Shown here: piece by piece, positions 3,043-27,319 of the stretch
How positions within the stretch are numbered: position 1 is the first letter of the stretch
Layout of the letters: each line of letters opens with the position of its first letter
From: an uncultured virus (IMG/VR IMGVR_UViG_3300010998_001248)
Taxonomy: Duplodnaviria > Heunggongvirae > Uroviricota > Caudoviricetes
DNA: 64,000 bases
Strand: one strand, 5' to 3'
IMG/VR virus record: IMGVR_UViG_3300010998_001248
Notes under the pieces: generated by a model
Told to the model about the DNA's origin: nothing
The model's database searches: none
The model's input: only the letters and a program-made list of their open reading frames with translations
Position numbers and translations under genes: made by a program

Positions 3043-3465
3043 TTATTCATGTTTATCCTCCAAACCTTCACCAATCAGTTTTTTACAGATTTCTGATTTA
3101 TGTTTTTCTGCTTCTTCTTTCGTTCTAAAAACATTTCCGCAGAATAATAAAGCAAGATCAATAGTATTTCTATTACTGCTGCTCCAATAAGCTTCTTCTA
3201 CATTTATCGGTTCTGAAGTTGATATAAAAAAGAATCTTTCACCGGCTTTTGGCTTAAATGGAAGTTTGACGATTTCTAATTCGCCTGTGAGTACTGCTCT
3301 TGTTTTACAGCTTTGTACCCAACTATATTCATCTTTATATTCCAAACCTCCGCTTTCATCAAAGCGAAAAGTTTGGTCATATACTGTATTTTTACCGCAT
3401 TTTAACTTAAACTCTTCCCTAACTCCAACACCAAGTAATTTACAAATTTCAGGTATTAAATTCAT
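3043..3465 (-). CDS. Hypothetical phage protein
   Basis: 140-aa ORF coupled to the dnaE C-terminal gene; GNVFRTKEEAE motif common in phage hypotheticals. Confidence 0.6.
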   Translation of the reverse strand: MNLIPEICKLLGVGVREEFKLKCGKNTVYDQTFRFDESGGLEYKDEYSWVQSCKTRAVLTGELEIVKLPFKPKAGERFFFISTSEPINVEEAYWSSSNRNTIDLALLFCGNVFRTKEEAEKHKSEICKKLIGEGLEDKHE

Positions 3466-4751
3466 TTAGGTTTTCCAACTCCTTCTAATATATTCCTTTT
3501 ACTAATCTTAAACAGATAAACAGCGTTTTCCTCTAACTGTTGATATTTAGAAGCAAACATTACAAGCTCTAAAGTTTGACCATCAATAAAATCAACTTTT
3601 ACAAAAGCCATATCGTTTTTATTTTTATCTTTGATTTTTTTGAACTTGATCACAACACCAAGAACATACTGTACGCCTACTTTTTCTGGAAAATACCTAT
3701 CCACATTAGTAGTATTATACTGAGCATAACGATTCTTGAATGTCATACCAAGTACTTCAATTTCCCCTTTTACTACATCATAATTATTTGAATTAGAAAT
3801 AATGGTTTTGATTTCATCAATGCTTTTCTCATACGATTCAATAGCTTCTCTTGCTCTTTCTACCTGTTTAACCAATGTAGCGTATTTTTTAGTTGCACGA
3901 TTGGCATTCTCAAGCTCTGCACTTTTTGCATATAAATACTCTTCTTTTTTATGCAAATTAGTTTTAGCATTCTCAAGCTCTGCACTTTTTGCATATAAAT
4001 ACTCTTCTTTTTTATGCAAATTAGTTTTAGCATTCTCAAGCTCTGTATGATAATCAAGAGCAATATTAAGCATCTCTCCTCTTGTCATATTAAAGCAATC
4101 GCAAGCTCCAGCTTTTATCAATGCTTCTTTTATACGTTTGTTATATCCATTCCTATTGAAGAACTCCTGTAAACTATCACCTGGATCATACTCAATTGTG
4201 ATGTTATTAATCCCTTTAATATAAGTTAATCCCATGATAATTGATTCATAGTCATATAGCTCAAACTCATTATTGCCAAAGCTAACATCAGGAGGAATAA
4301 TCTTAATTCCCATTTTTTTACATTCCTCAATATATTCGACAACCTTATCAGAATCTCCGATATTGCCATTGAGTAAAGAACACATATATTCCAATGGATA
4401 ATTAGCTTTAAGATATGCTGTCTGATATGCAATCAAGCCATACTCTACAGAATGAGCCTTATTGAATAGATAACCGGAACACGCTTGAATACTTGTAGCA
4501 AGCTTCTGAGCATTTTCTTTACTCAGACCACCATATTCTTGAAAAGCTTTCAGTAAATCAGGGATTAAAGCATCAAGCTCTTCCTTGATTTTCCTGCCAA
4601 TCGTCTTTCTGATTTTATCTGCCTTACCAGCAGAATAACCAGCAAGCTTCATAGCTATCTCTGTAACCTGTTCCTGGAAAATTAACTGACCATAAGTAGG
4701 AGCTAATATTTCATCAAGTTTAGGACTTATATTGTCAAGTAATACTGCCAT
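3462..4751 (-). CDS. dnaE: DNA polymerase III alpha, C-terminal half (fingers, HhH, OB)
   Basis: ILAPTYGQLIFQEQV, YLFNKAHS, QTAYLKANYP, GLTYIKG, KDKNKNDMAFV motifs; own GAGGTG RBS and ATG. Confidence 0.9.
   Translation of the reverse strand: MAVLLDNISPKLDEILAPTYGQLIFQEQVTEIAMKLAGYSAGKADKIRKTIGRKIKEELDALIPDLLKAFQEYGGLSKENAQKLATSIQACSGYLFNKAHSVEYGLIAYQTAYLKANYPLEYMCSLLNGNIGDSDKVVEYIEECKKMGIKIIPPDVSFGNNEFELYDYESIIMGLTYIKGINNITIEYDPGDSLQEFFNRNGYNKRIKEALIKAGACDCFNMTRGEMLNIALDYHTELENAKTNLHKKEEYLYAKSAELENAKTNLHKKEEYLYAKSAELENANRATKKYATLVKQVERAREAIESYEKSIDEIKTIISNSNNYDVVKGEIEVLGMTFKNRYAQYNTTNVDRYFPEKVGVQYVLGVVIKFKKIKDKNKNDMAFVKVDFIDGQTLELVMFASKYQQLEENAVYLFKISKRNILEGVGKPK
3904..4045. repeat. Perfect 63-bp in-frame tandem duplication (about 2.25 copies) in dnaE-C
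   Basis: Unit starting GCATTCTCAAGCTCTG at 3904, 3967 and 4030; encodes ELENAKTNLHKKEEYLYAKSA twice. Confidence 0.95.
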
Positions 4752-7922: not shown

Positions 7923-9824
7923 TCATTTTCTCTTTTTTAAATACTCCTTCCTTTTCTTAATATATTCATCAACAATTCCTAACTGTAATGGAGCTGGTCT
8001 GCCAAGTGCTACGATAGCAACCATATCTTTGAATCCTTCCGGCTGAATACCTCTTACTATTCCCTTCATCATCTCTGATTCTACCTGGAATACTCCATTT
8101 GTTTCAGCTTTACAAAGTAATTCAGAGGTTTTCTTATCATCTAATGGAATATGGTTTATATCAATATTGACTCCTTCGGATTTTAAGAGCTGTAAGCAAT
8201 CCTCAATAATATCCATGTTCTTCAGACCAAGTACATCAACCTTAGCTAACCCTAATTCCTCTAATTCGTGATAATCGTAAGCAGCTAAAAAGCTATCTCC
8301 CTTACGTTCTATTGCACAAAATTCTGTTGGGTCTTTAGGAAAGACAAGGACAGCACTTGCATGAACTGAAGTATTAGCAATCAATCCTTCAAAACTTTTT
8401 GCCAATTCAACAAGTTCTTTGTTGTCTTTAGTAACCTGAATATCATCTAAACTATCAATTACTTTTTTGCTTAATTCCCTTACTACAGTAGACCTTATCC
8501 CTAAAGTCTGACCAGCTCTTTGTAATGCTCCTTTTGCAGCTAAAGCATTGAATGTGCGAACCTGATACACATAGCCGTATTTTTCTCTTAAATAATCAAT
8601 TACTCTTTGCCTGTTTCGCTGTTCCACATCAACATCAATATCTGCTGTAGTTACACGTTCAAGATTACAGAACCTTGAAAAAGTTAAATCGTTTTCAATC
8701 GGATCAACCTTAGTTATATCCATTAGATACGCTACAAGACTTGCACCAACACTACCTCTACCACAACCAAAGCGAATACCATTATCTTGACCCCACTTCA
8801 TATAATCCCATACAATCAGCATCATATTTAAGTAGTCAGCTTTTTCAAGTATTTCCATTTCTTCAAGAAATCTTTCCAGGTATTTACCCTGTTCTGATTT
8901 CGGTATTCTTGTGTTGATTTTACGTTTCCAGCCTTCTCTACAGATAGCTTTCACATATTCTACTTGATTACCACAATCAAAGACAGGAAAGTTATCTTCA
9001 CCAAACTTGATTTCAACATTACATTTCTCAGATATTTCATCTGTATTCCGGATTGACTTTTCAACCACATCTTCAGGCAAATAGCTTAATGCGCTCCTCA
9101 TTTCTTCTTCACTATGCAAGTAGAAATCATCTGTCTGATAGTAGCTGTTTTCATCATTCTCATCAATGCCAATCCACATTTTATGAATTTTGGCATCTTT
9201 TTTATATACATAATGAGCATCACATGTTGCTATTGTATGTATATCAAGTAATCTGGATATATCCACCAAAAGCTTGTTAAACTCAAGTTGCTCAGGCATT
9301 TGATTAGTGTGCAATTCAATGTAGAAATCATCTTGAAAAGTTTCACGATATTTTTTAGCAACATCATAAATTTTTTGTTTATCAAAACCTCCTTCATCAT
9401 TTTTGATTCCTAATATTCCACCAAGACAAGCAGAACCTACAACAAGACCTTCTTTATATTTCATAAGAACATTCCAGTCTATTCTTGGCTTATAGTAAAA
9501 ACCATCAGAGTAAGCTACTGTAGTAAGTTTTAAAATATTTTTATAGCCTTCCATGTTTTTTGCCCATAAGCAGATATGTTGATAATCAAACTTTTCTTTG
9601 ATGGTAATATCATCAGTAATATACGCTTCTACTCCGAAAATGAATTTCAGTCCAGCCTTTTTAGCTAACTTATAATGCGTTAAAAGGCTACTTGTTGAAC
9701 CATGATTAGTAATTGCATAAGAAGTTTGACCTAATTCTGCAATTCTTTTGACAATATCTTCCGGTTTAGCGATTGCATCAAGTACAGAACCTTTATGATC
9801 ATGATTATGTAAGTTTACACACAC
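7923..9824 (-). CDS. dnaE: DNA polymerase III alpha, N-terminal part (PHP, palm, thumb)
   Basis: LHNH PHP motif, GRGS, catalytic DIDVD, KVDVLGL, GVFQ, ALGRPAPL. Confidence 0.92.
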   Translation of the reverse strand: MCVNLHNHDHKGSVLDAIAKPEDIVKRIAELGQTSYAITNHGSTSSLLTHYKLAKKAGLKFIFGVEAYITDDITIKEKFDYQHICLWAKNMEGYKNILKLTTVAYSDGFYYKPRIDWNVLMKYKEGLVVGSACLGGILGIKNDEGGFDKQKIYDVAKKYRETFQDDFYIELHTNQMPEQLEFNKLLVDISRLLDIHTIATCDAHYVYKKDAKIHKMWIGIDENDENSYYQTDDFYLHSEEEMRSALSYLPEDVVEKSIRNTDEISEKCNVEIKFGEDNFPVFDCGNQVEYVKAICREGWKRKINTRIPKSEQGKYLERFLEEMEILEKADYLNMMLIVWDYMKWGQDNGIRFGCGRGSVGASLVAYLMDITKVDPIENDLTFSRFCNLERVTTADIDVDVEQRNRQRVIDYLREKYGYVYQVRTFNALAAKGALQRAGQTLGIRSTVVRELSKKVIDSLDDIQVTKDNKELVELAKSFEGLIANTSVHASAVLVFPKDPTEFCAIERKGDSFLAAYDYHELEELGLAKVDVLGLKNMDIIEDCLQLLKSEGVNIDINHIPLDDKKTSELLCKAETNGVFQVESEMMKGIVRGIQPEGFKDMVAIVALGRPAPLQLGIVDEYIKKRKEYLKKRK

Positions 9825-12311: not shown

Positions 12312-12758
12312 TTAACCTTTATGCAGAACGATTATATTTCTCTTTTGTCTGCCAAAGTTCAAGGCATCTGTTAAATTGTCATAGTAAATATCAATTCTGC
12401 ATCCTTTAATTGCGCTGCCTGTATCTTGCACTTCATATACTCCCATTCCGTCAATGTAAATCAATGTTCCATAAGGTAAAATCCTTACATCTGCTGCTAC
12501 ATATCCTTGTCTAACTTTCTTACCGGAACTTGTGATTCCATAACCAGTATCTCCAGGACTTTTACCAGTAGATTCATAACCAGCAGTATAAGCTGTACAT
12601 TCAGCTAAAAACATATCAGCCTTTTGAATATCAGGAATAATATCAACATACACTACTTCTGTCTGAGTTTTAACTGGTTCTTTTTTCTTAGCTAATACTA
12701 TTGGAAATACTGTAAGAAATGACAATATCAATGCTAATACAACCCTCAGTTTAATCAT
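12312..12758 (-). CDS. 3D-domain protein with N-terminal signal/TM segment, copy 2
   Basis: TAYT...GITSSG...VAAD..ILPYGT...QDTGSAIKGCRIDIY. Confidence 0.85.
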   Translation of the reverse strand: MIKLRVVLALILSFLTVFPIVLAKKKEPVKTQTEVVYVDIIPDIQKADMFLAECTAYTAGYESTGKSPGDTGYGITSSGKKVRQGYVAADVRILPYGTLIYIDGMGVYEVQDTGSAIKGCRIDIYYDNLTDALNFGRQKRNIIVLHKG

Positions 12759-14022: not shown

Positions 14023-14392
14023 TTTTTAAGTCCCACTCAATACCTTCCACTTCTTCAACAGAATTTGCATCAGCAATCATATCTTTTAATTCTCTATATC
14101 TTTGATGGAGAACGTTACTACGTGCAGCAGCAGAAGCAATAACATTCTTTAAATCAAAAGCAGTAACATTGACTACATCATTATCAGCAGTAGTCCAGTA
14201 AATACTGCCGCCATCACCAACAGCATAAATCGCTGCTAAAATTCGCTGATAAGACTTTTCATCAAAATCATAGAGATGCCCTTTATATTCTACAGGCTGT
14301 GTTTCTCTATAATCACGTACAGCTTTAAGAGCATTTTTCTTCAGCTCTTTCGTTTCTTCAAGCGTAAAACCATTAGACCCAATGTTTGACAT
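14000..14392 (-). CDS. DUF4376-like tail fibre-associated protein
   Basis: YDFDEKSYQRI...WTTADN...ADANSVEEVEGIEW. Confidence 0.7.
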   Translation of the reverse strand: MSNIGSNGFTLEETKELKKNALKAVRDYRETQPVEYKGHLYDFDEKSYQRILAAIYAVGDGGSIYWTTADNDVVNVTAFDLKNVIASAAARSNVLHQRYRELKDMIADANSVEEVEGIEWDLKNEDLQIQ

Positions 14393-15570
14393 ATTGATAC
14401 ACCTCTTAATTCATCAATAAATAAATCATCATACAATTTAATTAAATTACATCTTTGAAGCTTTGACATATATTTATAAAAAGAACCATACCATGACTTG
14501 AACATACTCTCTATGTCATGATACGGAACTTTACCATCAATCAATTTCTTTTTAAGTTTCTTGAGTTTTCTCCGCATAGCTGTAATGCGTTTTGGATTAA
14601 TTTTAACAATAACTCTTCCGGTACTGGTTAAACAATACTGCATTTGTAAAAACTTAAAATTTGAGCTTAATTTATATATCCTTGTCTTTTTTGGATTAAT
14701 AAAAATGCCTATTTCATCAGCAATTTCTTTTATCTTTACCAGGAGTTCTTTTAGTTCTTCTTTAGTTTCGGCAATTATGAATGAATCATCCATGTACCTA
14801 CCATAAAATTTAACGCCACATACGATTTTGATAAAATTATCAATCCTTATAGGATAGAATGTACTAAGGCTTTGTGAACCCTGATCTCCAATATTTAAAG
14901 ATTTTTCCCAAAAATACTTACCTGTTTTAAGCTTTGAAGGAATTTTATTATGCTCAAGAATTTTTAACTTTGTTGTCTTATATCGTTTTCTTTCTTCTTC
15001 AGAAAGATATGAAACATCAACAGCAGAATCATGCAATATCAGAGATAAATACCATTTGTCTTTCTCTGTAGGTAACAGCTTACCTACTTCTTCTTTTAAA
15101 ACCTCATGCAGTATATTGTCATAGAATCCACTATAATCTTCTACCAAAATCCAACCAGTATTAGATTTATGTTGATTAAACCATTTTTGTAAGAACCATT
15201 TAAACCTGTTACGTGCCATTGAAATACCACGTTTTTCAAGAGAAGCATAATTATCATAAATAAGCTTTGGTCTTAATATTGGATTCAAAACATAATCACA
15301 AAAAGCATGACGGGCTACTCTATCTCTCATTCGCAAGCCTTTTATTAACCTTGTCTTACCTCTTTCATTGATAATAAAAGATTTCGGTTCAAAAGTTTTA
15401 TATGTTCCGTCTTTTAATTCCTTTTGCAAAAGAGCTATCTCCAATAAATAATTAGCTTCAAACAATTGAACTTCAGGTTTCCAATTACTATTAAGTTTTG
15501 CTTTTAAATATCCATCATACAGGTAGTTTGCATCAGTAATAACACTATCGTTAAATTCAGAATAATCCAC
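14341..15570 (-). CDS. DGR reverse transcriptase
   Basis: ERGKTR, RDRV, IGDQGSQ (DGR-type GxxxSQ), YGRYMDD, FLQ; adjacent to TR and avd. Confidence 0.95.
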   Translation of the reverse strand: MDYSEFNDSVITDANYLYDGYLKAKLNSNWKPEVQLFEANYLLEIALLQKELKDGTYKTFEPKSFIINERGKTRLIKGLRMRDRVARHAFCDYVLNPILRPKLIYDNYASLEKRGISMARNRFKWFLQKWFNQHKSNTGWILVEDYSGFYDNILHEVLKEEVGKLLPTEKDKWYLSLILHDSAVDVSYLSEEERKRYKTTKLKILEHNKIPSKLKTGKYFWEKSLNIGDQGSQSLSTFYPIRIDNFIKIVCGVKFYGRYMDDSFIIAETKEELKELLVKIKEIADEIGIFINPKKTRIYKLSSNFKFLQMQYCLTSTGRVIVKINPKRITAMRRKLKKLKKKLIDGKVPYHDIESMFKSWYGSFYKYMSKLQRCNLIKLYDDLFIDELRGVSICQTLGLMVLRLKKRKS

Positions 15571-15690
15571 GTTTATAACCTCATCAGACGTATCTGGAAG
15601 TATCGTGTTTAGTATTTACCATATCGGAAGGACAACCTCTCCTTTCTCTTTCCCACTTTCAGCACAGAGCCTACTTAAAATTGTGGAAGT

Positions 15691-15784
15691 GAAATCAGGG
15701 CGAACGCCATAAGAATTCGAAGCGTAGCCGTTGTTCGCATTGCCGTTGTTGTTGACATTCGCAAAGTTCGCAGCGGAACTCACG
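15691..15784 (-). ncRNA. DGR template repeat (TR)
   Basis: 94-bp ungapped match to 16368-16461; rich in AAC/AAT codons; 12 of 16 mismatches are at TR adenines. Confidence 0.95.
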
Positions 15785-15808
15785 GAACAGCGTATTACAG
15801 AGATTGCC

Positions 15809-16282
15809 CTATGTTGCTGGTTTCGTTCTGATTTTATTATCAGATTTTCTCCAGCCTTTAATTAATTTAACTTGATTGTCAATTTCTAATGCAAAACGAG
15901 TGTACTTGTTAATATCCGGTTTAATTGTTTCTATAGAATATTGTAATTCCTGTAGTATTTGATAACAGTTAACTATAGCTCTATCTTGATACAAGCGTCT
16001 TTCAGTCCACTCAGCATCATTAATAGGATATATAGTATTCGCTGCTATTAAATTCGCTATTAAATTACGCAACCTTGTAATAATCACAGTTCTTGAATTT
16101 TCAATAAACCATGATTCAAAAGCAGCTCTCCTTTGGCTACGAAATTCAGATTCCAAAGTGTTTTCTTTCCATTTATAACCAAAATCATAGAGCAATAAAT
16201 TTGTAATATCTTTCCGTAATTTATAAGCGTGATGTAAAACTTCAAATTTAGATTCTTTACGTTTACTTTTTACAACACTCAT
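15809..16282 (-). CDS. avd: DGR accessory variability determinant (Avd-like)
   Basis: Basic, helical 157-aa protein (MSVVKSKR...AANTIYP...RRLYQ...LIKGWRKSD) between VR and TR. Confidence 0.85.
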   Translation of the reverse strand: MSVVKSKRKESKFEVLHHAYKLRKDITNLLLYDFGYKWKENTLESEFRSQRRAAFESWFIENSRTVIITRLRNLIANLIAANTIYPINDAEWTERRLYQDRAIVNCYQILQELQYSIETIKPDINKYTRFALEIDNQVKLIKGWRKSDNKIRTKPAT

Positions 16283-16321
16283 TGTACCTCCTGTATGATA
16301 GACAAATTAGCAAAAAATAAC

Positions 16322-16344
16322 CTATGCTCCATATAGGAGCATAG
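16322..16344. promoter_or_regulatory. DGR target-recognition hairpin downstream of VR
   Basis: CTATGCTCC-ATATA-GGAGCATAG, 9-bp perfect stem, 11 nt past the target stop codon. Confidence 0.75.
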
Positions 16345-16355
16345 ATTTTAGATCA

Positions 16356-17555
16356 TTAGATTAAGGCGAAAGCAGGGCGAACGCCAAGAGAATTCGAAGC
16401 GAGGTAGTAGTACGCAGTGCCGTAGGCGTTGACAATCGCAAAGTGCGCAGCGGAACCCACGTCCATCAACCAGTAATTTTGTCTTATGTTGATATACCTT
16501 GGAGAAAGCCTAAATAACGGCAACTGTGTCTTTTGGCTACCAACAGAATAACCATTATTACCAGAATCGCCCCAAGCTCTCGTTCCATACACCATGACCT
16601 CATTCATTAATTCGACATTGCTATCTTTCCATGCCCAAGATGTATATTTACCGCCTGTGCAAGATGTAGGCAGAAGTTTTCTATGTGTAGGAACATTAGC
16701 CTGACCGAAAGCAGCATAAACCAAGTTCCTTGCTGTATCTAACTCTGCATACAAATCAGTAGCTAAATAACCGCCCTCTGTTGTGTTTACTGCACCAGAT
16801 TCATAAGCACCGCTTGATGTTTTGTGCATCTGAGCATTATACAGGCAAGTATCAGGTACAATAACTACATGGTGTTTTGTGAAATTAGTATCGCCAACAT
16901 TGTACCAATAATCAAATCCTGCAATTCGCCAAACAACACCATTAATAGTCCAGTAATCGCCTACAAACATATCGTCAAAAGTTCCTGCTGTAATCGCTGC
17001 TCTCTGTGCAGATGATACAGATGTTCCTAAGCTTTTACCTCTAAAAATGCTATTATGAAATCCTGCTTCTGACCCAAAAGTATAAAACCAAGCTGTTGTA
17101 GCAATTTGTGTGCTTTTATCATAAGCTGCTGGCGTTACAGACTTGGGAGTACCAGTAAAAGTAGGAGATGCAATAGGAGCATAAGAACCTAACAAAGTCT
17201 TAATAAAAGCTGTAGTTGCGAATTTCTTACTATTATCTGACTGTTCAGGAGTAACACCTAAAACAGCCCCTGTAAAAGTCGCTCCTGCAAGTGCAGCGTA
17301 ATCTCCAAGAGCTGTCATTACATAAGCTGTAGAAGCTGCTTTTGTGGAATTATCCCCTTTGGTTTTAGTACCAACAACAACATTTCCACTTGCTTCAAAA
17401 TCTTTTACAGTAGCTTTATTACTTAAATTTAAGTTTTTAGCTGTAATCGTATTTTCAATATTTATTGCTTTAAAAAATCCGTTTAACCATTTTTTAACTG
17501 AAGTACCAATAGAGCCTTCACCATCAGCTCTTGGAGCAAAATTTCTTGTTGCCAT
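16356..17555 (-). CDS. DGR target: tail fibre / receptor-binding protein with C-terminal CLec-type variable domain
   Basis: Three DxS...ATTA(F/Y/W)-like fibre repeats; ends YWL...GVRPAF and contains the VR. Confidence 0.9.
   Translation of the reverse strand: MATRNFAPRADGEGSIGTSVKKWLNGFFKAINIENTITAKNLNLSNKATVKDFEASGNVVVGTKTKGDNSTKAASTAYVMTALGDYAALAGATFTGAVLGVTPEQSDNSKKFATTAFIKTLLGSYAPIASPTFTGTPKSVTPAAYDKSTQIATTAWFYTFGSEAGFHNSIFRGKSLGTSVSSAQRAAITAGTFDDMFVGDYWTINGVVWRIAGFDYWYNVGDTNFTKHHVVIVPDTCLYNAQMHKTSSGAYESGAVNTTEGGYLATDLYAELDTARNLVYAAFGQANVPTHRKLLPTSCTGGKYTSWAWKDSNVELMNEVMVYGTRAWGDSGNNGYSVGSQKTQLPLFRLSPRYINIRQNYWLMDVGSAAHFAIVNAYGTAYYYLASNSLGVRPAFALI
16368..16461 (-). repeat. DGR variable repeat (VR)
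   Basis: Encodes VGSAAHFAIVNAYGTAYYYLASNSLGVRPAF; aligns to TR without gaps. Confidence 0.95.
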
Positions 17556-17572
17556 ATATTCACCTTCCTATA

Positions 17573-18445
17573 TTAAAATGTTGGAATAATATCACCATTA
17601 TCATCAATATCAAACATCTGAGATGCAACAGGAACTATTTTAGGCATAATGTCACCATTAGAGTCATATTCAAAAGTTTCTGTAATACTTATTGAAATAC
17701 TCGCCCAATATTCAGGAGATGTTACCGGAGGATTACCTGTTGATGTTTTGATACAACGATAAGAAGAACCATCATTAGTAATAACGCAATCACCAGGCTG
17801 ATAAGTCTTTGTACTATCCCAAAATGAATCAATAACAGATGCAGGAAGTACTGACTGAATACCCTGGTATAAAGTCTGTATATCTAATAACGCCTGTTGT
17901 GCAGAAGTATTAGCTTGTTCTGCATTTGTTTCGGAAGATGCAGCATTTGTTTCACTTGATTTCGCATTGGTTTCTGAAGTTTTCGCATTGGTTTCTGAGG
18001 TCTTTGCTTTTGTTTCAGAAGCCTTTGCGTTCGTTTCGCTTGTTTTTGCGTTCGTTTCAGAAGTCTTTGCTTTTGTTTCTGAAGATTTAGCATTGGCTTC
18101 AGAAGTAGCTGCTGCAACTTTACTGTTATTGGCTGAAGTAGCTGAATTAGCTGCTGCTGTAGCACTATTCTTAGCGTTTGTAGCTGAATTAGCAGCCAAG
18201 GTAACACTTGATGTTGCAGTAGTTTTAATTTCTTCAAAATACGTTAAAGCAGCATTATCAAGCGAAATCTGAAGGTAAGCTAAATCTTTCCAGTGACTCT
18301 GACCATCACCAACTTTAAACTTAATTCCTGTTGTAGAACGCTCAACACCCCACTCACCATTAAAGAGAATAGGATTTTTACTGTTCCAATTAGCTGTAGA
18401 ATCAGTCCTATGCTTAATACGTGCTTTCCATAATGTTTTAGCCAA
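17573..18445 (-). CDS. Tail fibre protein (Mtd/hyaluronidase-like N-terminus, heptad repeats, carbohydrate-binding-like domain)
   Basis: NPIL..GE.G...KVGDG..W..L.Y; SETNAK(T/A/S) repeats; WDSTKTYQPGD. Confidence 0.8.
   Translation of the reverse strand: MAKTLWKARIKHRTDSTANWNSKNPILFNGEWGVERSTTGIKFKVGDGQSHWKDLAYLQISLDNAALTYFEEIKTTATSSVTLAANSATNAKNSATAAANSATSANNSKVAAATSEANAKSSETKAKTSETNAKTSETNAKASETKAKTSETNAKTSETNAKSSETNAASSETNAEQANTSAQQALLDIQTLYQGIQSVLPASVIDSFWDSTKTYQPGDCVITNDGSSYRCIKTSTGNPPVTSPEYWASISISITETFEYDSNGDIMPKIVPVASQMFDIDDNGDIIPTF
17925..18105. repeat. Degenerate 21-bp coding tandem repeat (SET[N/K]AK[T/A/S])
   Basis: About eight heptad units within the fibre gene. Confidence 0.85.
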
Positions 18446-19529: not shown

Positions 19530-20618
19530 TCATTCTGAATTGAATTTACCTCCAATCGCTGAAATGATTTTTTTAACTGCCTTTTCAACACTTTCAAAAA
19601 AGACTATATTTATTGCACATGATTTCCGTAAGCCATTTTCACCTTCCGGTTCTAAAGGACAGCCACCACTACAATAATCTTTAATAACACATTCTTCACA
19701 TGCTTTTAACTTTTTACTATTTAGCCATTTTTCATAGTTCTCAATATATTTTTCTCTGTTGTCATTAACATTACCAATCACAACGCCAGTATTATGACAG
19801 GCATATATGTTCCCATCTAAATCAACATTCAAATTATGATATATTTGACCACAATTCAAATAATGATTATTACCATCCATGCCATTAGCTACAGTCTTAA
19901 TAAAAGGCAAAGCTACCAACAATCTTTTAGTGATGTTCCCACTTAATAGATCATCAGCAGCTTGATTAAAAAATGATTCAGTATTCTTTCTATATTCATC
20001 TAAATCTAAGCAGTACAGCTCTTTAGGCATATCCCATGTAACACGTAAAAGCTCAATATTAGGAACTGCTTTAGGTAATACGATATTCCAATAACCAATT
20101 AATGTATCATAATCAATGTTAAAAGCTGAAGTAGTTGCATCTACAGACAAATTATTAATCTGATTTAACATTGATTTAATCACTAAATCTTTGATAACAT
20201 CTACCCTACGTGTCTTAATGGTATTAATCCCATCATGGCTAAGAGTAAAATTAATATCATTCTCATTCAGAAAATCAACTATATCATGATTCAGTAAACT
20301 CCCATTACTGACAATACCATAAGTAAAGGAACTACCAAAAATCTTTACTATTTCCTTAATTTGTTCAAAGTAAAGTAAAGGTTCACCACCCCAAAACATA
20401 ATGTGAATTTTCTTTTGATTATCACGCTCTTTTATTAATCTCCATAAATACTGCTGTAATTTTTCGCTGATATGTTTCTCTTTATCAGGCTTCATATCAC
20501 ATTGCAAACAGTATTTACAATGGAAATTACAAGCACTACCAAGCATGATATATATACGATTAATATTAGATTCACGAAAACGCATTATTTTTTTATCTGT
20601 TTTTACACGAAAACGCAT
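19530..20618 (-). CDS. Radical SAM protein with SPASM-type C-terminal domain (rSAM-2)
   Basis: CNFHCKYC, WGGEPLL, SNG, SHDG; C-terminal CGQ...IYACH...CEECVIKDYCSGGCP...C. Confidence 0.92.
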   Translation of the reverse strand: MRFRVKTDKKIMRFRESNINRIYIMLGSACNFHCKYCLQCDMKPDKEKHISEKLQQYLWRLIKERDNQKKIHIMFWGGEPLLYFEQIKEIVKIFGSSFTYGIVSNGSLLNHDIVDFLNENDINFTLSHDGINTIKTRRVDVIKDLVIKSMLNQINNLSVDATTSAFNIDYDTLIGYWNIVLPKAVPNIELLRVTWDMPKELYCLDLDEYRKNTESFFNQAADDLLSGNITKRLLVALPFIKTVANGMDGNNHYLNCGQIYHNLNVDLDGNIYACHNTGVVIGNVNDNREKYIENYEKWLNSKKLKACEECVIKDYCSGGCPLEPEGENGLRKSCAINIVFFESVEKAVKKIISAIGGKFNSE

Positions 20619-21289
20619 TATTTACTCCAATCATAAACCAATCGTTCTAAATCAATCATCCTGCCTTTATACCTACAATTTTGAGTACCGATATAAGCCA
20701 TCTCTCCAGGAACATAGCGAAAATTGATAGTATTCAAGCCATCTTGCAATTTAAAACTTTGTCCTGCATGATTAAAGTAAATATCTTCTTTCCAAAAATC
20801 TGATCTAACTAATTCAAAACTAATATTGATACAATTATCAACAATGTTGCCTTTAACATTTTTCAAAGTCCAGCTATATTGCCAATCAAGAGGATGAATA
20901 TAATCTTTAGTGCAATGCTTGTAACTGGAAAAGTCTGTAGTATCAGACTGTAATTCAGTTTCACCTTTTAACAAAAAGACTTTTATAAACAAATCATTTT
21001 CGCTTTTATCAATCTGCATTAATCCTCTATTGTTAAATGTACGCAACATTTCTAAAGGAGTCATATCTAATACCTGTAATATCTCCCTAAAGTTATATAG
21101 AGAATACAGATTGTCAGTAACAGGATTGTACATCACCATTGTAGAAGAACCATTTCTCAAAAGTTCCGTATCAATCACTACTTGCTTTTTGTCAAGTATT
21201 AAAACAAGCTTTTTACCATTAATATTAAGCTTCATCTGTTCTTGACTATGACTTTTACTTACTGCATTAGGAAAAATAAATAAATGCAA
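20618..21289 (-). CDS. Hypothetical protein of the rSAM module
   Basis: 223-aa ORF tightly packed between the two rSAM genes. Confidence 0.7.
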   Translation of the reverse strand: MHLFIFPNAVSKSHSQEQMKLNINGKKLVLILDKKQVVIDTELLRNGSSTMVMYNPVTDNLYSLYNFREILQVLDMTPLEMLRTFNNRGLMQIDKSENDLFIKVFLLKGETELQSDTTDFSSYKHCTKDYIHPLDWQYSWTLKNVKGNIVDNCINISFELVRSDFWKEDIYFNHAGQSFKLQDGLNTINFRYVPGEMAYIGTQNCRYKGRMIDLERLVYDWSK

Positions 21290-22216
21290 TTACATAAACT
21301 CCTTGTGTAATTCATAAAACTTTTTAAACCAGGAATACAACTTAAAATAATACCTACATTCTTTCTCATGCTCTAATGACTTGATACATGCTCCACCACA
21401 CATATCATACACATAGCATGAGCTACATTCAGGAAAATTAACTTTAATATGTTCACTAATATCATCCGGTTTTTGATTGCGTATATAAAGACACGAAAAT
21501 AATTCGCCTTCAGAATTACATTTCTGCCTATAATGATTCACACAATACGTTTCACCAAAATGATATTTAGCTTCATATTGCGACTTTAACTGAGTAAACA
21601 GTCCTTTATATCGCACATTCTCAACACCATATCTTATATAATCAAGTACATACTTTGTTACATACTTTTTATACTGTTCAACAATACTGTCAAAATCATC
21701 ATCAGTTAATCTGTATTGCTTATTACTGTCTGAAGTATAATGCATGATATGAGGAAAAAAAGATAAATGTTTACCTACAATCTTTTCCTTTTCAGCAAAC
21801 TTCTTGATAATATCGTTAAAATTAGTATTACCATGATAGAGTGTGCAAGAAACAGCAATATAAGGATAATCAATCACTTCCTGAAACGGATCATAACCTC
21901 TTAATTCATTATTTCCATCAAAACTGACACAAACTAAAAATTTATGAGATAAAAAATATGGCAGATATTTTTTAATACCTACACCATTCGTAGTTATCTT
22001 AAAATCTGCCATAGGATTAGCTTCTACAACTCTTTGAATATCATTCATATAAAGAGTAGGCTCTCCACCAATAAAGCTAATATGTTTTATATCATTTTTC
22101 TTTATGTAATTTAATAGGTTATCGCTTATGCCATTTTCTATACTATCTTTTTCTCTATGACAGTATTTGCAATTCAGATTACATTTACTACCAAGATATA
22201 TGGTTAAAGCTTTCAA
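21290..22216 (-). CDS. Radical SAM protein with SPASM-type C-terminal domain (rSAM-1)
   Basis: CNLNCKYC, IGGEPTL, TTNG, SFDG; C-terminal YC...SCLY...CSSCYVYDMCGGAC...C. Confidence 0.92.
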   Translation of the reverse strand: MKALTIYLGSKCNLNCKYCHREKDSIENGISDNLLNYIKKNDIKHISFIGGEPTLYMNDIQRVVEANPMADFKITTNGVGIKKYLPYFLSHKFLVCVSFDGNNELRGYDPFQEVIDYPYIAVSCTLYHGNTNFNDIIKKFAEKEKIVGKHLSFFPHIMHYTSDSNKQYRLTDDDFDSIVEQYKKYVTKYVLDYIRYGVENVRYKGLFTQLKSQYEAKYHFGETYCVNHYRQKCNSEGELFSCLYIRNQKPDDISEHIKVNFPECSSCYVYDMCGGACIKSLEHEKECRYYFKLYSWFKKFYELHKEFM

Positions 22217-22219
22217 TAT

Positions 22220-23029
22220 TTACTCCACTATCAAATTATATTCGTTCCAGACTTCATACCATTTTCTGCCAATCTTAATTTTAATCTGTCCTTTATGACC
22301 AAAAGGATATAACCGGAAATGACCTTTTCCATTTTTCAAAACTACCCTACGATTATTAACCAGACCAGCAGTAGATTCAACCAACACAACCTCATTATCA
22401 ATATCACGATTTAAAGGTTCTATAAAATCGCCTTTATATTTCTGTATGGTCAAATCGAAATACTCTTTATCAGATGTAAGAAATACTGTATTAGGTTCTT
22501 CTTTCAAAAACCCTTTTCTGTTTGATTTCCACTCTGTATTTTTAAAACTCAAAGAATAACTATCCCAAAGATTATCTCTTGGATGGTCTTGTTTAATCAA
22601 ATCGTCAGAATTAAAATATCCAATCTCATAATCTTCATCTGCATTAATAGTTGTATTTTCAGGTTTACCTTCAAAAATACGAATTATAATATCTCTTTCA
22701 GTACCATTGATAATACCTGTATCAAGCTGCATAATATCATAATCAGAGAAAAGCTGAATAATATTGGCAAAATCCATTTTGATACTAACACCAAGGCGAT
22801 TTAAATTTAAGAACTTATAATCAGACTTATGAATCTTTCTATAAATCTTAATCTTACCAGGTGTACATACAAGCGCATAGCTATTGTACGGAGATAATGT
22901 TTCTATAATATCAAATCCAGACTTACCACGTTCTTCATCCTGCACTTCTGCTTTAATACTCAAGCTCTGTAAAGTGAGTTTGATTGTATTATTCGCATTA
23001 GATTTTTTGTTAAATAGAATTTTTAACAT
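22220..23029 (-). CDS. Hypothetical protein of the rSAM module
   Basis: 269-aa ORF with AGGTGA RBS; beta-rich-looking C-terminus. Confidence 0.7.
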   Translation of the reverse strand: MLKILFNKKSNANNTIKLTLQSLSIKAEVQDEERGKSGFDIIETLSPYNSYALVCTPGKIKIYRKIHKSDYKFLNLNRLGVSIKMDFANIIQLFSDYDIMQLDTGIINGTERDIIIRIFEGKPENTTINADEDYEIGYFNSDDLIKQDHPRDNLWDSYSLSFKNTEWKSNRKGFLKEEPNTVFLTSDKEYFDLTIQKYKGDFIEPLNRDIDNEVVLVESTAGLVNNRRVVLKNGKGHFRLYPFGHKGQIKIKIGRKWYEVWNEYNLIVE

Positions 23030-23038
23030 TTCATCACC

Positions 23039-23413
23039 TTATATCAACGGATAATTCTCACAAAAGAAATTATCATCATTTTCAACACCAATATCATAGC
23101 AAGTGACAGGTTCTTCTAAATGTTGTATATAAACAGAATCGCTAACAATCCTTCCGTCACGTTGCATAATATAAATAGTTTTTTCTGCTAATTCGCTCAC
23201 ATCTTTAGCACCATAGATTGTGACAATCTTTGTATCTAAAGAAACAGCCAAATTAGGATTATTTTTGAACTTAATAATCGTATCAACCTTATTCTTCTTT
23301 AGCCGTAATATCTTTAAAGGTCTTGACATACGATTAATTGTACTATTTTTCTTTGTTAGTTCGGTTACATCTACATAACCTTTATTAGTTAAAATATTAC
23401 CTTTAACAATCAT
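23039..23413 (-). CDS. Stand-alone degenerate Hint (intein-like) domain protein
   Basis: ILTNKGYVDVTEL resembles Hint block A and VTCYDIGVENDDNFFCEN resembles block F/G; lacks Cys1, TxxH and terminal HN. Confidence 0.7.
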   Translation of the reverse strand: MIVKGNILTNKGYVDVTELTKKNSTINRMSRPLKILRLKKNKVDTIIKFKNNPNLAVSLDTKIVTIYGAKDVSELAEKTIYIMQRDGRIVSDSVYIQHLEEPVTCYDIGVENDDNFFCENYPLI

Positions 23414-23435
23414 ATATTATACCTCCCAACAATAA

Positions 23436-24236
23436 TCACGGCCCACCATCATCACCACAATCACAATCACAGTTACAGTTACAATTACAGTTCGATCCAG
23501 ACAACCTCTTTGATGTGTGAGTATGTGCCATATTTAATAATGCCTGTATCAATGTTTTGATAGAATAAGTTCCTGCCTTAACTGTAGCTTTGTTAACATT
23601 AAATGTTGTAATCCATTCACTTGTAGAAAATTGAGCAGACATAGAAGGATTAAGAGCTGCATGAGTACCGGCAGTAACAGCAAGAGAGTCATTACTTGCG
23701 TTTGCAACTGTAATAGTCCTCTTCCCGTATGAAGTTACTCTACCTTTAGCATCTACAGCAAAATACGGAACTGTAAAACTACGTGCTGTTGAATTAGTAG
23801 TATCTCCAACAGTACCAGCAGTAACCTTATTCCCTAAAGCAAGAGAAATAGATACAGAGCCATTATTACCTACAGTAGCACTACCAGTAATATCACCTGT
23901 TGCTGTAATATGCGTAAGTATTGAAACTAAAGTCCATTTACATGATCCATCTGTAAAAGTTGTTGTACTTGTTGACCATGCTGGCTCATTTGCCCCTGAA
24001 GTTCCTGCTGTAGTACATTTAGCGAATGTTCCAGCAGGAAGGTTAGGACTTCTTAAAAGCTGATTCAATACATATTTTGTAGATGGCTGCCACAAAACAG
24101 CATCAGTAATATTTTCAACTACAGCATGAGTGTTTTTTAAATATGCCTGTAATTCATCCTCTGTAGTAGGTGTTGAAGATGTTTCATACTGGAAAAACCT
24201 GTCTGTATCTCTTATAAGTTTAATTACTTCTGACAT
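23436..24236 (-). CDS. Tail fibre protein with C-terminal (N/D-C)x6 tract
   Basis: Fibre motifs WQPSTKY, CTTAGTSG..EP.W, TGDITGS, VDAKGRVT, HTH; ends SNCNCNCNCDCDCGDDGGP. Confidence 0.8.
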   Translation of the reverse strand: MSEVIKLIRDTDRFFQYETSSTPTTEDELQAYLKNTHAVVENITDAVLWQPSTKYVLNQLLRSPNLPAGTFAKCTTAGTSGANEPAWSTSTTTFTDGSCKWTLVSILTHITATGDITGSATVGNNGSVSISLALGNKVTAGTVGDTTNSTARSFTVPYFAVDAKGRVTSYGKRTITVANASNDSLAVTAGTHAALNPSMSAQFSTSEWITTFNVNKATVKAGTYSIKTLIQALLNMAHTHTSKRLSGSNCNCNCNCDCDCGDDGGP

Positions 24237-24250: not shown

Positions 24251-27200
24251 TTAGTATAATGTTTCCTTAATAAACCCTTGCCAAGTCACATCAGCTACAG
24301 CAGATATAGCTGTCTTACTACCATCAGAATTAATCTTATTTACTTTAATCTTGCAAGGGATTCTATCCACAACCTCAAGTTCTAAAACACCATTAACGTT
24401 TGACTGTATAGTGTTAGCACGTACAGCAGTAGTATAATAATGAGGTGTTTTAATTGGAAGAGTTGTTCCAGAGGTTGATATAATTACATTGTCAAAAGTT
24501 TCCATTCTATCCGGAACATCAACATTGACAATAAATTTATTTAACTGAGCGTATTCATTAGCATTAGGCTCAATATGAATCATAATATGGACAGTATCAG
24601 TAGAACCTATCATAACCTTTCCGGTATAAGGCTTATATATACCTGAGAACTGCCATTGTGCTTTTGAAGCTGTATGCCAACCTGAATTAGAAGGTGTAGA
24701 CCACGCTAATGAACCATTTAGCAAACAATACTGTACTGTTGCAGAACCATTGGGAATTTCAAAATCAAGCCAGAACTGACCATAAGATAACGGCTGTGCA
24801 GGAATATAAATATCAAGAGCCTTGCCTTTTGCAGTACCTCTAATATGACCACCTGTAATAGTTCCATTATGGCTGACAACACCCCAATTATTAGCTGACA
24901 TATCTTTTTGGAAAACAATGTTATCCTGTAAAGGTTCACCAAGATTCAAAATACAAGAGCATGGATTTTTACTTTCATTTCCTGCATTATCTACAGCCTT
25001 AATCATTACAGTATGCACACCATCACGTAAAGCTGCTGTTTCAAAAGGCTGTGCAGTAATAAGACCTGTATGCAATTCATGAGCATTTTTCCATGAAGCA
25101 TTTGTGCCTTGAGTATATTTGATTTTAAAACCTGAAATGTCATTCGGTTTAGGATAAGTAAACTCCCACCAAAAACGCCTTACGCCTGTAGGCAACACTT
25201 CAGAGTCAATCTGCCTTACATCAGCAGGAGGTACATCTTTACCAACTACAGTAATTGCTTTAGTAGCTGGTCTGCCTTCAAGACCATCTTTAGATACACC
25301 CTGTACGCAAACCACCCATCTACCAGTAGAAATACCAGTAATTGCTACCGAATTATCAAAAGTAGAAGCATAAGTCTTATAAGTCTTACCACCATCTTTA
25401 GACATTGAAACTTTATAATGATCGAAATATTTATAAAGTAAATTATCCCAACTTACAAACACACCGATAACCAAAGACCCATCCTCAGCAGTATAAGAGT
25501 TTTCAATAACATCAAGATTACTTACTGCTGCCGCTGTCTTTAAATACGGACTGTCTTTATATGTGTAATTAGGAATTGATATTGTAGCACCAAGAGCATC
25601 ATTATAAATACTTGCGTTATATTGCCTACAAGTAAGCTGATATGTTCCTGCATTTGTTTCATCAATCTCTGTAATTCTAAACGGCATTTTTTTAAAGATA
25701 CCGCCATAAGTTACTCTGACAACATCTCCTGCTTCAAGCATCATGCCCTGTGTAGATACGCTAAACGATATTGTCAAAGAACAAGTCTTGTTCAAATCAC
25801 GATAAAGCCTACCTAAACGCAAAGCCTGTTGCTGAGAAGTACATCCGGTTAAACTTACAGTTTTCTCTACAATTCTGTTATTCCTATCTAACTGAGCTTC
25901 TAAATCTTCTACAATTACTTTAACTTCAGTCCAGTTTAAACCAGGTTCTATATATCCAATCTTATATCTGTTCGGAGTATCTTCAATAGAAGTCTGAGTG
26001 ATAGAAACACTGTCTTTTACAATATTATCATCTGTAAAATCATAAATAGGAATTTCCGCTTTCTCTACATGTAAAGCAATCTTTTTATTAATTGTTATCC
26101 ATGTTGCAGAGCAAGCAAACATCTCAGCTAACCAATCAAGAGGTTTTTTAGAGTTATCTAAAACCATATTTAACGTATAACGTTTTCTTTGCCTTGTAAC
26201 TCCCTTTTCGTCAACATAAGGAACATAAGCATCACAATACTTAGCAACTTCCTTAAAGCTGTTATCATCTAAATTGCTTTCTGCAATCCAATAACCACAG
26301 CCATATCTCTTATTGGTCAGGAAATCTCTTATAATCCATGCAGGATTTTCAGAATACTCTTCTACCCAAGCATTATTTTTCCATACTTTAACTTTCCTAC
26401 CCTGTACAATACCATTGATTGTAGGATTACCACCTGACAAACGTGCAGAAGCTATTAAATCAGCACGAATCCAGCAAACATTAGGATAACCGCCTACTTC
26501 ATCATAATTAGATGGAGTTTGACAATCGTATACATGATATGTTCCCATGCTATAACCTCTGTTATCGAGAACAACCATATTATTTCTTTCCGGATCAGAC
26601 GGGTCACAATAACAATTGCATGGCGTAGTTGTTTTAAATTGAATAGCGTTTGCATTAATACCCTTGCTTGATTTATCATTAACTGCTCCGTCAATTTTCC
26701 AACCATCACCAGCATCATTTCTGATATTTTCAATTACTGTTGTGAGTAATGCTGTCTGCTGATTTTGTGTTTCAACATCCTGACAAAGATATTCATGATA
26801 AGTTCCACCAGCTTCAAGTATTAGATAACCATTCCAATCTCCATCTTTTTTCCAACGTACTGTAGCATCTTCATACTGAGTATTGTATATGGAAACGTTT
26901 GTATTATTCTTAATTAAATCGTCATTCGCACATACATTGTAGACATTTTTAATGCCACCTTCGCAAATAACAACGTCCTTTTCAAGATTACGCTGAGAAT
27001 TGTGAGGATTATGCCAAGTTTGTAATCCACCCCACTTGCGAGTACCATAGATTACTGGTATAACAGCACTACTTGAAATTTCATTTGTTATTAAATCGAA
27101 CCGACTATTATCATTAGTACTGTAATCATCTACATCTAATCCAGGTGTTTTTGGTTTTTGGGTAACACTCCAGATAGTTGAAGCAATGCTCATGCCATAC

Positions 27201-27319
27201 ATAGCACCAGCAACAACACGTACAGAGCTGCCAAACCACCCCATAGCACCGCCAACAGCACCTAACGCAAAGCCGGCTATACTAAAGAGCAGTTTACCTG
27301 TGCTTTTGCCTTTACCCAA
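24251..27319 (-). CDS. Tail tip / host-specificity protein (lambda J-like)
   Basis: IPVIYG, GRKV, SENPAW..RDFLTNKRYG, FN3-like C-terminal region; 1022 aa. Confidence 0.85.
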   Translation of the reverse strand: MGKGKSTGKLLFSIAGFALGAVGGAMGWFGSSVRVVAGAMYGMSIASTIWSVTQKPKTPGLDVDDYSTNDNSRFDLITNEISSSAVIPVIYGTRKWGGLQTWHNPHNSQRNLEKDVVICEGGIKNVYNVCANDDLIKNNTNVSIYNTQYEDATVRWKKDGDWNGYLILEAGGTYHEYLCQDVETQNQQTALLTTVIENIRNDAGDGWKIDGAVNDKSSKGINANAIQFKTTTPCNCYCDPSDPERNNMVVLDNRGYSMGTYHVYDCQTPSNYDEVGGYPNVCWIRADLIASARLSGGNPTINGIVQGRKVKVWKNNAWVEEYSENPAWIIRDFLTNKRYGCGYWIAESNLDDNSFKEVAKYCDAYVPYVDEKGVTRQRKRYTLNMVLDNSKKPLDWLAEMFACSATWITINKKIALHVEKAEIPIYDFTDDNIVKDSVSITQTSIEDTPNRYKIGYIEPGLNWTEVKVIVEDLEAQLDRNNRIVEKTVSLTGCTSQQQALRLGRLYRDLNKTCSLTISFSVSTQGMMLEAGDVVRVTYGGIFKKMPFRITEIDETNAGTYQLTCRQYNASIYNDALGATISIPNYTYKDSPYLKTAAAVSNLDVIENSYTAEDGSLVIGVFVSWDNLLYKYFDHYKVSMSKDGGKTYKTYASTFDNSVAITGISTGRWVVCVQGVSKDGLEGRPATKAITVVGKDVPPADVRQIDSEVLPTGVRRFWWEFTYPKPNDISGFKIKYTQGTNASWKNAHELHTGLITAQPFETAALRDGVHTVMIKAVDNAGNESKNPCSCILNLGEPLQDNIVFQKDMSANNWGVVSHNGTITGGHIRGTAKGKALDIYIPAQPLSYGQFWLDFEIPNGSATVQYCLLNGSLAWSTPSNSGWHTASKAQWQFSGIYKPYTGKVMIGSTDTVHIMIHIEPNANEYAQLNKFIVNVDVPDRMETFDNVIISTSGTTLPIKTPHYYTTAVRANTIQSNVNGVLELEVVDRIPCKIKVNKINSDGSKTAISAVADVTWQGFIKETLY

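Follow-up and report, generated by a model that had tools for sequence, protein, structure and literature searches.

We analyzed a stretch of 64,000 nucleotides from an uncultured virus of the class Caudoviricetes (IMG/VR record IMGVR_UViG_3300010998_001248), here called the window, which carries a compact gene module directly 3' of a gene for a J-type central tail fiber. The module encodes a fiber protein that ends in an alternating run of asparagine or aspartate and cysteine, (N/D-C)6, together with a protein of the Hint fold, two members of a family that we call X, and two radical S-adenosylmethionine (rSAM) enzymes of the SPASM group. Neither enzyme has an N-terminal recognition element (RRE) of the type used in the maturation of peptides that are ribosomally made and post-translationally modified (RiPPs). 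The features are as follows, in window coordinates:

24251..27319, minus strand: J-type central tail fiber or tail tip protein, 1,022 aa (phrog_31, 8.3e-91; PF13550, 5.1e-16), the upstream boundary of the module
23436..24236, minus strand: fiber protein, 266 aa, the proposed substrate, with an N-terminal attachment or carbohydrate-binding-module-like domain and a C-terminal tip module bearing the Cys tail
23517..23525, minus strand: HxH motif of the fiber (H238-T-H240), some 10 residues ahead of the tail and nearly invariant in a 14-row alignment
23457..23492, minus strand: (N/D-C)6 tail NCNCNCNCDCDC, fiber residues 249 to 260, followed by GDDGGP and the stop codon
23039..23413, minus strand: free-standing protein of the Hint/bacterial intein-like (BIL) fold, 124 aa (AlphaFold2 [AF2] model with Foldseek; alignments)
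22220..23029, minus strand: X1, 269 aa, predicted all-beta, with an Ig-like sandwich at residues 150 to 269 (AF2 model; family profile)
21290..22216, minus strand: rSAM1, 308 aa, radical SAM/SPASM enzyme without an N-terminal RRE (Pfam, motif alignment, structure comparison)
20618..21289, minus strand: X2, 223 aa, a distant paralogue of X1 (BLASTP, E = 3e-4; X profile)
19530..20618, minus strand: rSAM2, 362 aa, radical SAM/SPASM enzyme without an RRE (Pfam, NCBIfam, structure comparison)

The six open reading frames (ORFs) of the module are spaced by -1 to 22 nt, and the fiber and Hint genes are followed by two X-plus-rSAM pairs. An initial annotation, made from the sequence alone, had described six tightly packed genes on one strand, encoding a fiber ending in (N/D-C)x6, a Hint-like protein, two further proteins of unknown family, and two radical SAM/SPASM enzymes, with no separate short precursor peptide, and all of these descriptions were borne out. 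Its placement of the module between the tail-tip gene and the lysis genes was right on the tail-tip side but was not confirmed on the other. The 123-, 129-, and 130-aa products encoded 3' of rSAM2 gave no informative family match in Pfam and PHROG scans, and their candidacy as lysis genes has no family support.

The C-terminus of the fiber reads NCNCNCNCDCDCGDDGGP (in a longer form, ...AHTHTSKRLSGSNCNCNCNCDCDCGDDGGP). A scan of the ORFs for cysteine runs found this to be the sole CxCxCxC run among the real ORFs, so that the window holds a single candidate substrate and no short precursor encoded separately. A protein search with the fiber returned 22 non-self relatives. The C-terminal tip module was common to 14 of them (P0002 to P0013, P0021, and P0023), and the tail was kept in 14/14; the remaining 8 (P0014 to P0020 and P0022) shared only the N-terminal ~115 residues and had unrelated tips with no cysteines and no tail. 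Since these N-terminal-only relatives carry other, tail-less tips, the tail belongs to an exchangeable tip module and not to the attachment domain. When the window fiber was aligned with 13 of the relatives (P0002 to P0013 and P0021), residues C250, C252, C254, C258, C260, and D262 were invariant in all 14 rows, at identities down to 30%, and the positions between the tail cysteines were occupied variously by N, D, Q, E, or A. The DNA encoding the tail is a hexanucleotide repeat whose unit number differs among relatives. On the evidence of these sequences, the tail is not a product of chance. A tblastn search of GenBank phages with the fiber gave only two weak N-terminal matches, the module as a whole had no DNA similarity to GenBank phages, and a search of genome contigs with the fiber alignment gave no match.

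IMG/VR was then scanned for the DNA pattern encoding NCNC[ND]C[ND]C, which yielded at least 122 stretches. Flanking DNA was examined for 80 of these, and 78 viral loci (designated L) were classified after the duplicates L022 and L064 were dropped. All counts from this viral scan are to be read as "at least," and an rSAM relative was defined as a protein matching the rSAMs of the window, L009, or L010 with a phmmer E value of <1e-5. A related rSAM was encoded in 41 of the 48 loci in which the motif lay 12 or fewer residues from the ORF end, invariably in the orientation of the tail gene and, for the most part, 0 to 5 kb downstream of it, and in 4 of the 5 loci with a longer extension after the motif. 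Two classes of loci served as controls. Where the motif fell in a short or non-terminal ORF, an rSAM was present in 1/9 loci, and this one (L038) really encodes a 67-aa tailed protein; where there was no in-frame ORF, the count was 2/16, both loci being cut by contig ends. Five of the seven tail loci without an rSAM have only about 1.1 kb or less of downstream DNA. The C-terminal module of the window fiber itself recurred in L009, L010, L021, L086, and other loci. In prokaryote genomes the pattern mostly represented simple repeats, and the rSAM profile matched in 4 of 80 loci, three of which (L134, L185, and L196) have a terminal tail and an X gene; the fourth, L152, encodes a 671-aa protein with a long extension after the tail. 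No rSAM relative (0/49) was found in prokaryote loci that were of class O or lacked a substantial motif ORF.

The initial annotation had suggested searching phage genomes for such co-occurrence and had cautioned that the rSAM genes might commonly occur without any CxC-tailed protein. This was not the pattern observed. Four full-length viral relatives of rSAM2 (L003 to L006; 23 to 29% identity) had Cys-repeat proteins with N/D-C ends nearby in 4/4 cases (for example, ...CNNCNCQP and ...CDCDCNDGN), and the exception was Ralstonia phage RP12, discussed below; two partial rSAM2 matches, L007 and L008, had no Cys-repeat protein nearby. Because rSAM relatives accompany 41 of 48 terminal tails and are nearly absent from the controls, the link between enzyme and tail is strongly supported, and we strongly infer that the two stand in a relation of enzyme and substrate. 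The proposal of the initial annotation that the substrate is the tip of a virion fiber is well supported by the co-occurrence, by the controls, and by the identity of the tail carriers.

We listed 59 distinct carriers and scanned 30 of them against PHROGs: 12 matched tail-fiber families, 1 matched a family of unknown function alone, and 17 gave no match. Every carrier that matched a PHROG of named function was a tail fiber, and the carrier in L083 has collagen repeats. In L009, L055, L104, and L131 (Hom_end_hint, down to 2.8e-8) and in gp028 of Achromobacter phage JWF, the tail is directly followed by a Hint domain that has Cys1 and also keeps the block-B His, and in L059 a domain of the Peptidase_S74 endosialidase-chaperone type takes this place (a match of 1.5e-4, at the cut-off). 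Because Hint and S74 modules placed after the tail self-cleave, the tail would once more form the end of the mature protein. The tail thus appears to be the intended mature C-terminus, standing either before a stop codon or before a self-cleaving domain. Phage JWF (L132, 25827-38768), a cultured siphovirus of an aerobe, has a gene order like that of the window: J, the fiber gp028 with tail and Hint domain, the 241-aa partner gp029, the rSAM gp030, and an endolysin. The junction in gp028 reads ...NCNCDCNCNCS-CFPAGT..., and its Hint domain looks active.

The layout of these carriers resembles that of a leader followed by a core, and the Hint and S74 domains show proteolysis next to the tail, as might be expected if the tail were a RiPP-like core that is cut off and released as a bacteriocin or signal, with the fiber as a giant leader. 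We consider this highly improbable. Self-cleavage by domains that sit C-terminal to the tail would not detach it from the fiber, the carriers are structural fibers of many families, and Pfam, NCBIfam, and PHROG scans found no protease or exporter gene in the window module.

Additional Cys-rich arrangements were seen among the carriers. The closest relatives of the window module (L021, L049, L060, L063, and L087; for example, L021:2386-2754) carry a second small protein of CQxCQx repeats, with Cys at every third residue and the same N/D-C tail end, encoded directly before Hint-X1-rSAM1-X2, and an rSAM2-like gene lies between the two tailed genes. In L027:4633-5628, L037:44-943, and L104:1-624, N-C dipeptides are dense far upstream of the tail (for example, GNCNNGNC...NCTNC...). 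The tail in L027 and L037 is followed by a domain of ~170 residues that starts SKI[VI]C and has no Pfam match, and the rSAM gene is upstream there.

The free-standing Hint protein of the window was recognized by its fold. Pfam gave only a match of 0.016, and an AF2 model built from six homologues had a mean predicted local distance difference test score (pLDDT) of 94.7. Foldseek matched this model to BIL2 (6y75; template modeling [TM] score, 0.82; E = 8.7e-7), the Clostridium thermocellum BIL (2lwy; TM, 0.81), and the gp41-1 intein (6qaz; TM, 0.77). Since profile-profile comparison of the free-standing and fused Hint proteins was weak, although collinear (probability, 6.4%; E = 0.0058), it is the fold that settles the identity. 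The window protein starts M-IVKG where the fused forms have C-F-x-A-G, so that the initiator Met occupies position 1, and its only His, H104, is not at block B. In the fused relatives, Cys1 is present in 4/5 aligned rows (the JWF segment began one residue past its Cys, which is present in gp028) and the His is invariant. Because it has neither Cys1 nor the block-B His, the window protein is predicted to be catalytically inactive and incapable of an N-S acyl shift, and any action it has must be in trans, since it is the product of a separate gene and is unable to cleave itself off. The gene has its own Shine-Dalgarno sequence. Hint is also kept as a separate gene in L060, L063, L087, L021, and L049 and is absent from L010, which makes it an optional component.

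The X proteins form a large, uncharacterized family that accompanies the tail and the rSAM genes. Neither X1 nor X2 matched Pfam, NCBIfam, or PHROG, and a Pfam scan of 37 X members found no real family. Their kinship rests on an iterated profile, because the pairwise BLASTP match between X1 and X2 has an E value of only 3e-4 over 105 residues. The profile, built from X1, X2, and their L010 counterparts, found 51 ORFs in the viral loci. Of the 48 tail loci, 39 encode an X protein, 3 others encode a member of a second partner family that is partly helical (262 aa in L009; JWF gp029-like), and 6 have neither; 3 of these 6 have less than 1 kb of DNA downstream. The X gene most often lies between those for the tail carrier and the rSAM or immediately follows the rSAM gene. 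Among 1.84 billion cluster representatives (clusters at 50% identity), the profile matched 1,001 at E ≤ 1e-3 and 597 at E ≤ 1e-10, most of which are 250 to 320 aa long and have the conserved domain C-terminally. As modeled by AF2 (pLDDT, 74.5), X1 is all-beta, and its residues 150 to 269 resemble the D0-D1 region of intimin (6tpl; Z = 10.0; root mean square deviation [rmsd], 2.9 over 94 residues) and a C-terminal domain of glycoside hydrolase family 2 (5euv; Z = 10.8; rmsd, 2.8 over 98 residues). The predicted Ig-like sandwich is a common fold and gives no function. An ESM Atlas search with X1 gave no usable match, and the nearest viral models were uncharacterized phage proteins, including ORF075 of RP12, which adjoins the rSAM genes of that phage. 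A complex prediction for rSAM1 with X1, made from two alignments, scored 0.01 against a mark of 0.32 and counts neither way.

Both enzymes exceeded the Pfam cut-off for Radical_SAM (PF04055), with 37.1 bits for rSAM1 and 39.7 bits for rSAM2 against a threshold of 29.5. The CxxxCxxC motif starts at residue 12 in rSAM1 and residue 30 in rSAM2. In 19 sequences from the window and the loci, the three cysteines of this motif (C12, C16, and C19) and six C-terminal cysteines (C242, C264, C267, C273, C277, and C287; rSAM1 numbering) were invariant, the latter including the CX2CX5CX3C part of the seven-Cys SPASM motif, which serves two auxiliary 4Fe-4S clusters. rSAM2 passed the SPASM model TIGR04085 (41.9 versus 27 bits); for rSAM1 the SPASM assignment comes from the Cys motif, with no SPASM model among the Pfam and NCBIfam matches listed. 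The two proteins are only distantly related to one another (35% identity over 112 residues). The rSAM1 clade is confined to the subfamily of the window and to gut Firmicutes prophages, and the rSAM2 clade accompanies the Cys tails of most other phages.

For both enzymes the best NCBIfam match was the PapB family NF047865 (rSAM2, 115.2 bits; rSAM1, 57.4 bits), which has a cut-off of 340. The next matches, to the Cys-modifying SPASM maturases QhpD, SCIFF, CcpM, and CefB and also to the anaerobic sulfatase-maturating enzymes (anSME), were all far below their cut-offs. For rSAM2 the scores were 85.1 for QhpD (TIGR03906; cut-off, 453), 52.1 for CrpC (TIGR04463; 525), 78.8 for SCIFF (TIGR03974; 425), and 69.3 for anSME (TIGR03942; 349), and for rSAM1 the same models gave 33.8, 21.1, 23.0, and 31.9, respectively. 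The enzymes are thus members of the radical SAM/SPASM group that, by their scores, fall outside every curated family examined. Among solved structures, CteB (5wgg; 4.3e-18) was nearest to rSAM2. Residue 15 of rSAM2 aligns to residue 92 of CteB and residue 4 of rSAM1 to residue 129 of SuiB, and because these alignments start past the N-terminal parts of CteB and SuiB, both window enzymes lack an RRE.

Known SPASM enzymes offer a chemistry that would suit this tail. NxxcB, according to passages of PMC9389541, forms a Cys-to-Asn beta-thioether in the motif NxxC and tolerates Ala, Gln, or Asp as acceptors but not Ser or Thr in place of Cys. PapB joins Cys to Asp or Glu (sections of PMC9413430 and PMC12373016) and accepts Cys-Xn-Asp with n = 0 to 6 (PMC9413430, in part). 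The window tail contains three overlapping N-x-x-C units (N249-x-x-C252, N251-x-x-C254, and N253-x-x-C256), as in NxxC-type substrates, and also C-Xn-D units, including the invariant pair C258-x3-D262, so that an enzyme of either the NxxcB or the PapB type could act on it. The relatedness of the enzymes, the cysteines that never vary although N, D, Q, E, or A may stand between them, and an invariant Asp located four residues past C258 lead us to infer that thioethers are formed between the tail cysteines and carbons of neighboring Asn or Asp residues, a reading based on sequence and analogy to which we give a probability of roughly 0.55.

Several points weigh against thioether formation. Because both enzymes fall below every curated cut-off, their reaction is not readable from family membership. 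Both lack the RRE used by enzymes of the PapB, CteB, QhpD, and CrpC types, and their size and architecture, judged from sequence, resemble those of anSME-like protein-modifying enzymes as much as those of RiPP maturases. A thioether reading also gives no reason for having two enzymes for one tail. The scan pattern fixes N or D at the non-Cys positions, which biases the composition of the scanned tails. In locus L077, which has a tail and an X gene, the 3.8 kb downstream contain no rSAM gene, and in L029, a near miss, the rSAM match was weak only. Phage RP12 (L133, 82025-95038) has three rSAM genes and the X-like ORF075 with no Cys tail within 6 kb; it may represent a related system with a different substrate. 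Finally, alternating-Cys tails that stand just after an HxH motif on a presumed trimer could be metal ligands. HxH motifs in trimeric fibers bind metal, and CxC runs are classic thiolate ligands.

Alternatively, the tail could be the substrate of another rSAM reaction, such as formylglycine or dehydroalanine formation, epimerization, or C-C or C-O coupling, or could be chiefly a metal or Fe-S site prepared or loaded by the enzymes. Enzymes of 308 to 362 aa with a full SPASM domain and no RRE have the architecture of the protein-acting anSME, the TIGR03942 alignment spans nearly all of rSAM1 (residues 8 to 284), and the missed family cut-offs and the nearly invariant HxH leave room for such a role. 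We nevertheless regard it as unlikely, although a serious contender, since PapB scores exceed anSME scores for both enzymes (115 versus 69 and 57 versus 32 bits) and the tail contains no C/S-x-P/A-x-R, the motif that anSME targets. The invariant Cys residues with N, D, Q, E, or A between them also match the acceptor tolerance of NxxcB, as far as the cited passages describe it, and metal binding alone needs no rSAM, yet at least one is found in 41/48 tail loci.

A different question is whether the enzymes act on the tail at all. They could act elsewhere, on X, another virion protein, or a host molecule, with the tail merely co-occurring, or, as a variant, they could weld the tail to X or to a neighboring chain. 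X is as constant as the enzyme and forms X-rSAM pairs in the window, and RP12 combines X-like and rSAM genes in the absence of a Cys tail. This reading is quite improbable, however, given that the cysteines of X are few and unconserved (one in X1, three in X2) and form no repeated motif, that the tail is the only element common to otherwise unrelated carriers, and that its unit number varies while its cysteines are kept, as expected of a core substrate. As a separate observation on RP12, this jumbo phage also encodes a 442-aa partner and a small ORF074 product with HTH-type motifs and no Cys tail.

Because the pairing of tail and rSAM recurs in many other phages, we think that these phages probably staple the tip of a host-binding fiber chemically. 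In the reading that we favor, the cassette would be a phage-encoded protein maturation system acting on the distal tip of the fiber. The fiber would be made with its C-terminal (N/D-C)6 tail, and the two RRE-less enzymes, using a 5'-deoxyadenosyl radical and auxiliary Fe-S clusters, would then join the tail cysteines to carbons of neighboring Asn and Asp residues. The result would be a ladder of thioether (ranthionine-type) cross-links, not opened by reducing agents, that stiffens or locks the receptor-proximal tip of what is presumed to be a trimer. One enzyme may serve the N-C part and the other the D-C part, or the two may differ in regiochemistry. The X proteins would be obligatory partners, which may substitute as adaptors for the absent RRE or serve the fiber tip as chaperones or adhesins. 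The Hint protein may descend from the self-cleaving cap that is fused after the tail in related phages; here, split off and predicted to be catalytically dead, it would probably be only a folding or docking helper.

A bolder version of this scheme, which we put forward tentatively and consider rather unlikely, is that the three-part system of an (N/D-C)n fiber end, an Ig-like X protein, and an RRE-less rSAM builds a dense thioether ladder that ties the three tip chains to one another covalently or welds X onto the tip. This three-part system spans lineages from prophages of gut Firmicutes to phages of aerobic Proteobacteria, such as JWF. If the bolder version were true, it would represent an inter-subunit radical cross-link in a virion, without a described counterpart, and the tip would be resistant to reduction and proteolysis and tunable in length through slippage of the hexanucleotide repeat.

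Comparison with characterized systems sets the proposed cassette apart in several respects. In substrate motif it resembles the streptococcal RaS-RiPP pair NxxcB/NxxcA, as the tail consists of overlapping N-x-x-C units with the same substitutions tolerated in the parts of the NxxcB report cited above. NxxcA is a short leader-bearing peptide from a quorum-sensing-linked operon, whereas the window candidate is the C-terminus of a 266-aa virion fiber in a system that has neither leader nor RRE and that includes two enzymes along with Ig-like partners. PapB/PapA (freyrasin) and CteB/CteA (SCIFF) provide the best family match (NF047865) and the nearest structure (5wgg), and the PapB scope of n = 0 to 6, as given in sections of its report, covers the CDCDCGDD part of the tail. 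They are unlike the window system in that the window enzymes score 115 and 57 bits against 340, lack an RRE, have a protein as their proposed substrate, and are encoded in a phage structural operon. Cross-linking of whole proteins by SPASM enzymes is described in part of PMC13692751 for QhpD/QhpC and for CrpC/CrpA of Methanococcus voltae, in which ranthionine cross-links are placed in Cys-repeat regions. CrpC (TIGR04463) and QhpD (TIGR03906) differ from the window enzymes in being cellular and in having an RRE or N-terminal recognition domain, and neither window enzyme reaches either cut-off; the window motif, (N/D-C)n, is at the extreme C-terminus. The word "phage" occurs 0 times in PMC13692751. 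The window Hint protein shares its 124-aa fold with BIL and Hedgehog-type Hint domains (6y75 and 2lwy), and in related phages such domains, like Peptidase_S74, are fused after the tail and would cut themselves off. It is unlike BIL domains in being a separate gene product with Met for Cys1 and no block-B His. Literature searches, with supplements outside their scope, found no description of such a phage system, and PMC12801897 and PMC6591296 merely list a radical SAM gene. What appears to be new here is chemistry like that of NxxcB, PapB, QhpD, and CrpC applied to the C-terminus of a virion fiber by RRE-less enzymes, with X and free, dead Hint proteins as partners; the window adds a Hint that is split off and inactive, X-rSAM pairs alongside a single substrate, and an X family that is both large and constant.

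The remainder of the window is a siphovirus-like structural block with terminase, portal, tape measure, tail assembly, and J genes, and the module sits within its fiber-gene block. The window terminase is nearest to those of Faecalibacterium and Enterocloster phages (~40% identity), and relatives of rSAM1 (~47 to 55% identity) are named from Ruminococcus, Veillonellaceae, and Phascolarctobacterium, on contigs of up to 2.4 Mb. Because the nearest terminases and rSAM1 relatives come from such sources, the window is likely a phage or prophage of gut Firmicutes. After rSAM2 come the three small ORFs, an Mtd_N fiber gene, a diversity-generating retroelement (DGR) with its target fiber gene, two fiber- or assembly-like genes, and then a candidate 3D-domain wall hydrolase (12312-12758). 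The DGR (14341-17555) is complete, with reverse transcriptase (14341-15570; RVT_1), template repeat (15691-15784), Avd (15809-16282; phrog_3206), and a variable repeat (16368-16461) that is 83% identical to the template and lies at the 3' end of a 399-aa tail-fiber gene; L010 likewise combines a Cys-tail cassette with a DGR. In the Mtd_N-type fiber gene (17573-18445), eight tandem 21-nt units (17900-18130) encode a heptad-like SETNAKT repeat. Elsewhere in the window, ORFs at 3462-4751 and 7923-9824 match the C-terminal (700 to 1052) and N-terminal (44 to 693) parts, respectively, of the DNA polymerase family phrog_405; they are ~3 kb apart with a methyltransferase gene between them and may represent a polymerase gene that has been split or interrupted. 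Four tRNA genes (Ile-TAT, Ser-GCT, Asn-GTT, and Lys-TTT; 43413-43741) adjoin a stretch of very low G+C content (44000-50000; 0.23 to 0.28) with opposite skew.

Two partner families emerge from this analysis as uncharacterized, the X proteins, with about 1,000 clusters at 50% identity, and the free-standing dead Hint proteins, and the cultured phage JWF is a ready experimental model. For enzymology, the cassettes supply many natural SPASM enzymes that lack an RRE and would act on folded proteins, with a very compact repeat as substrate. If the tails are cross-linked, radical SAM chemistry known from natural products helps to build the host-touching tip of many phages, a virion modification so far not considered in studies of structure or host range and one that would be missing from recombinant fibers produced without the enzymes.

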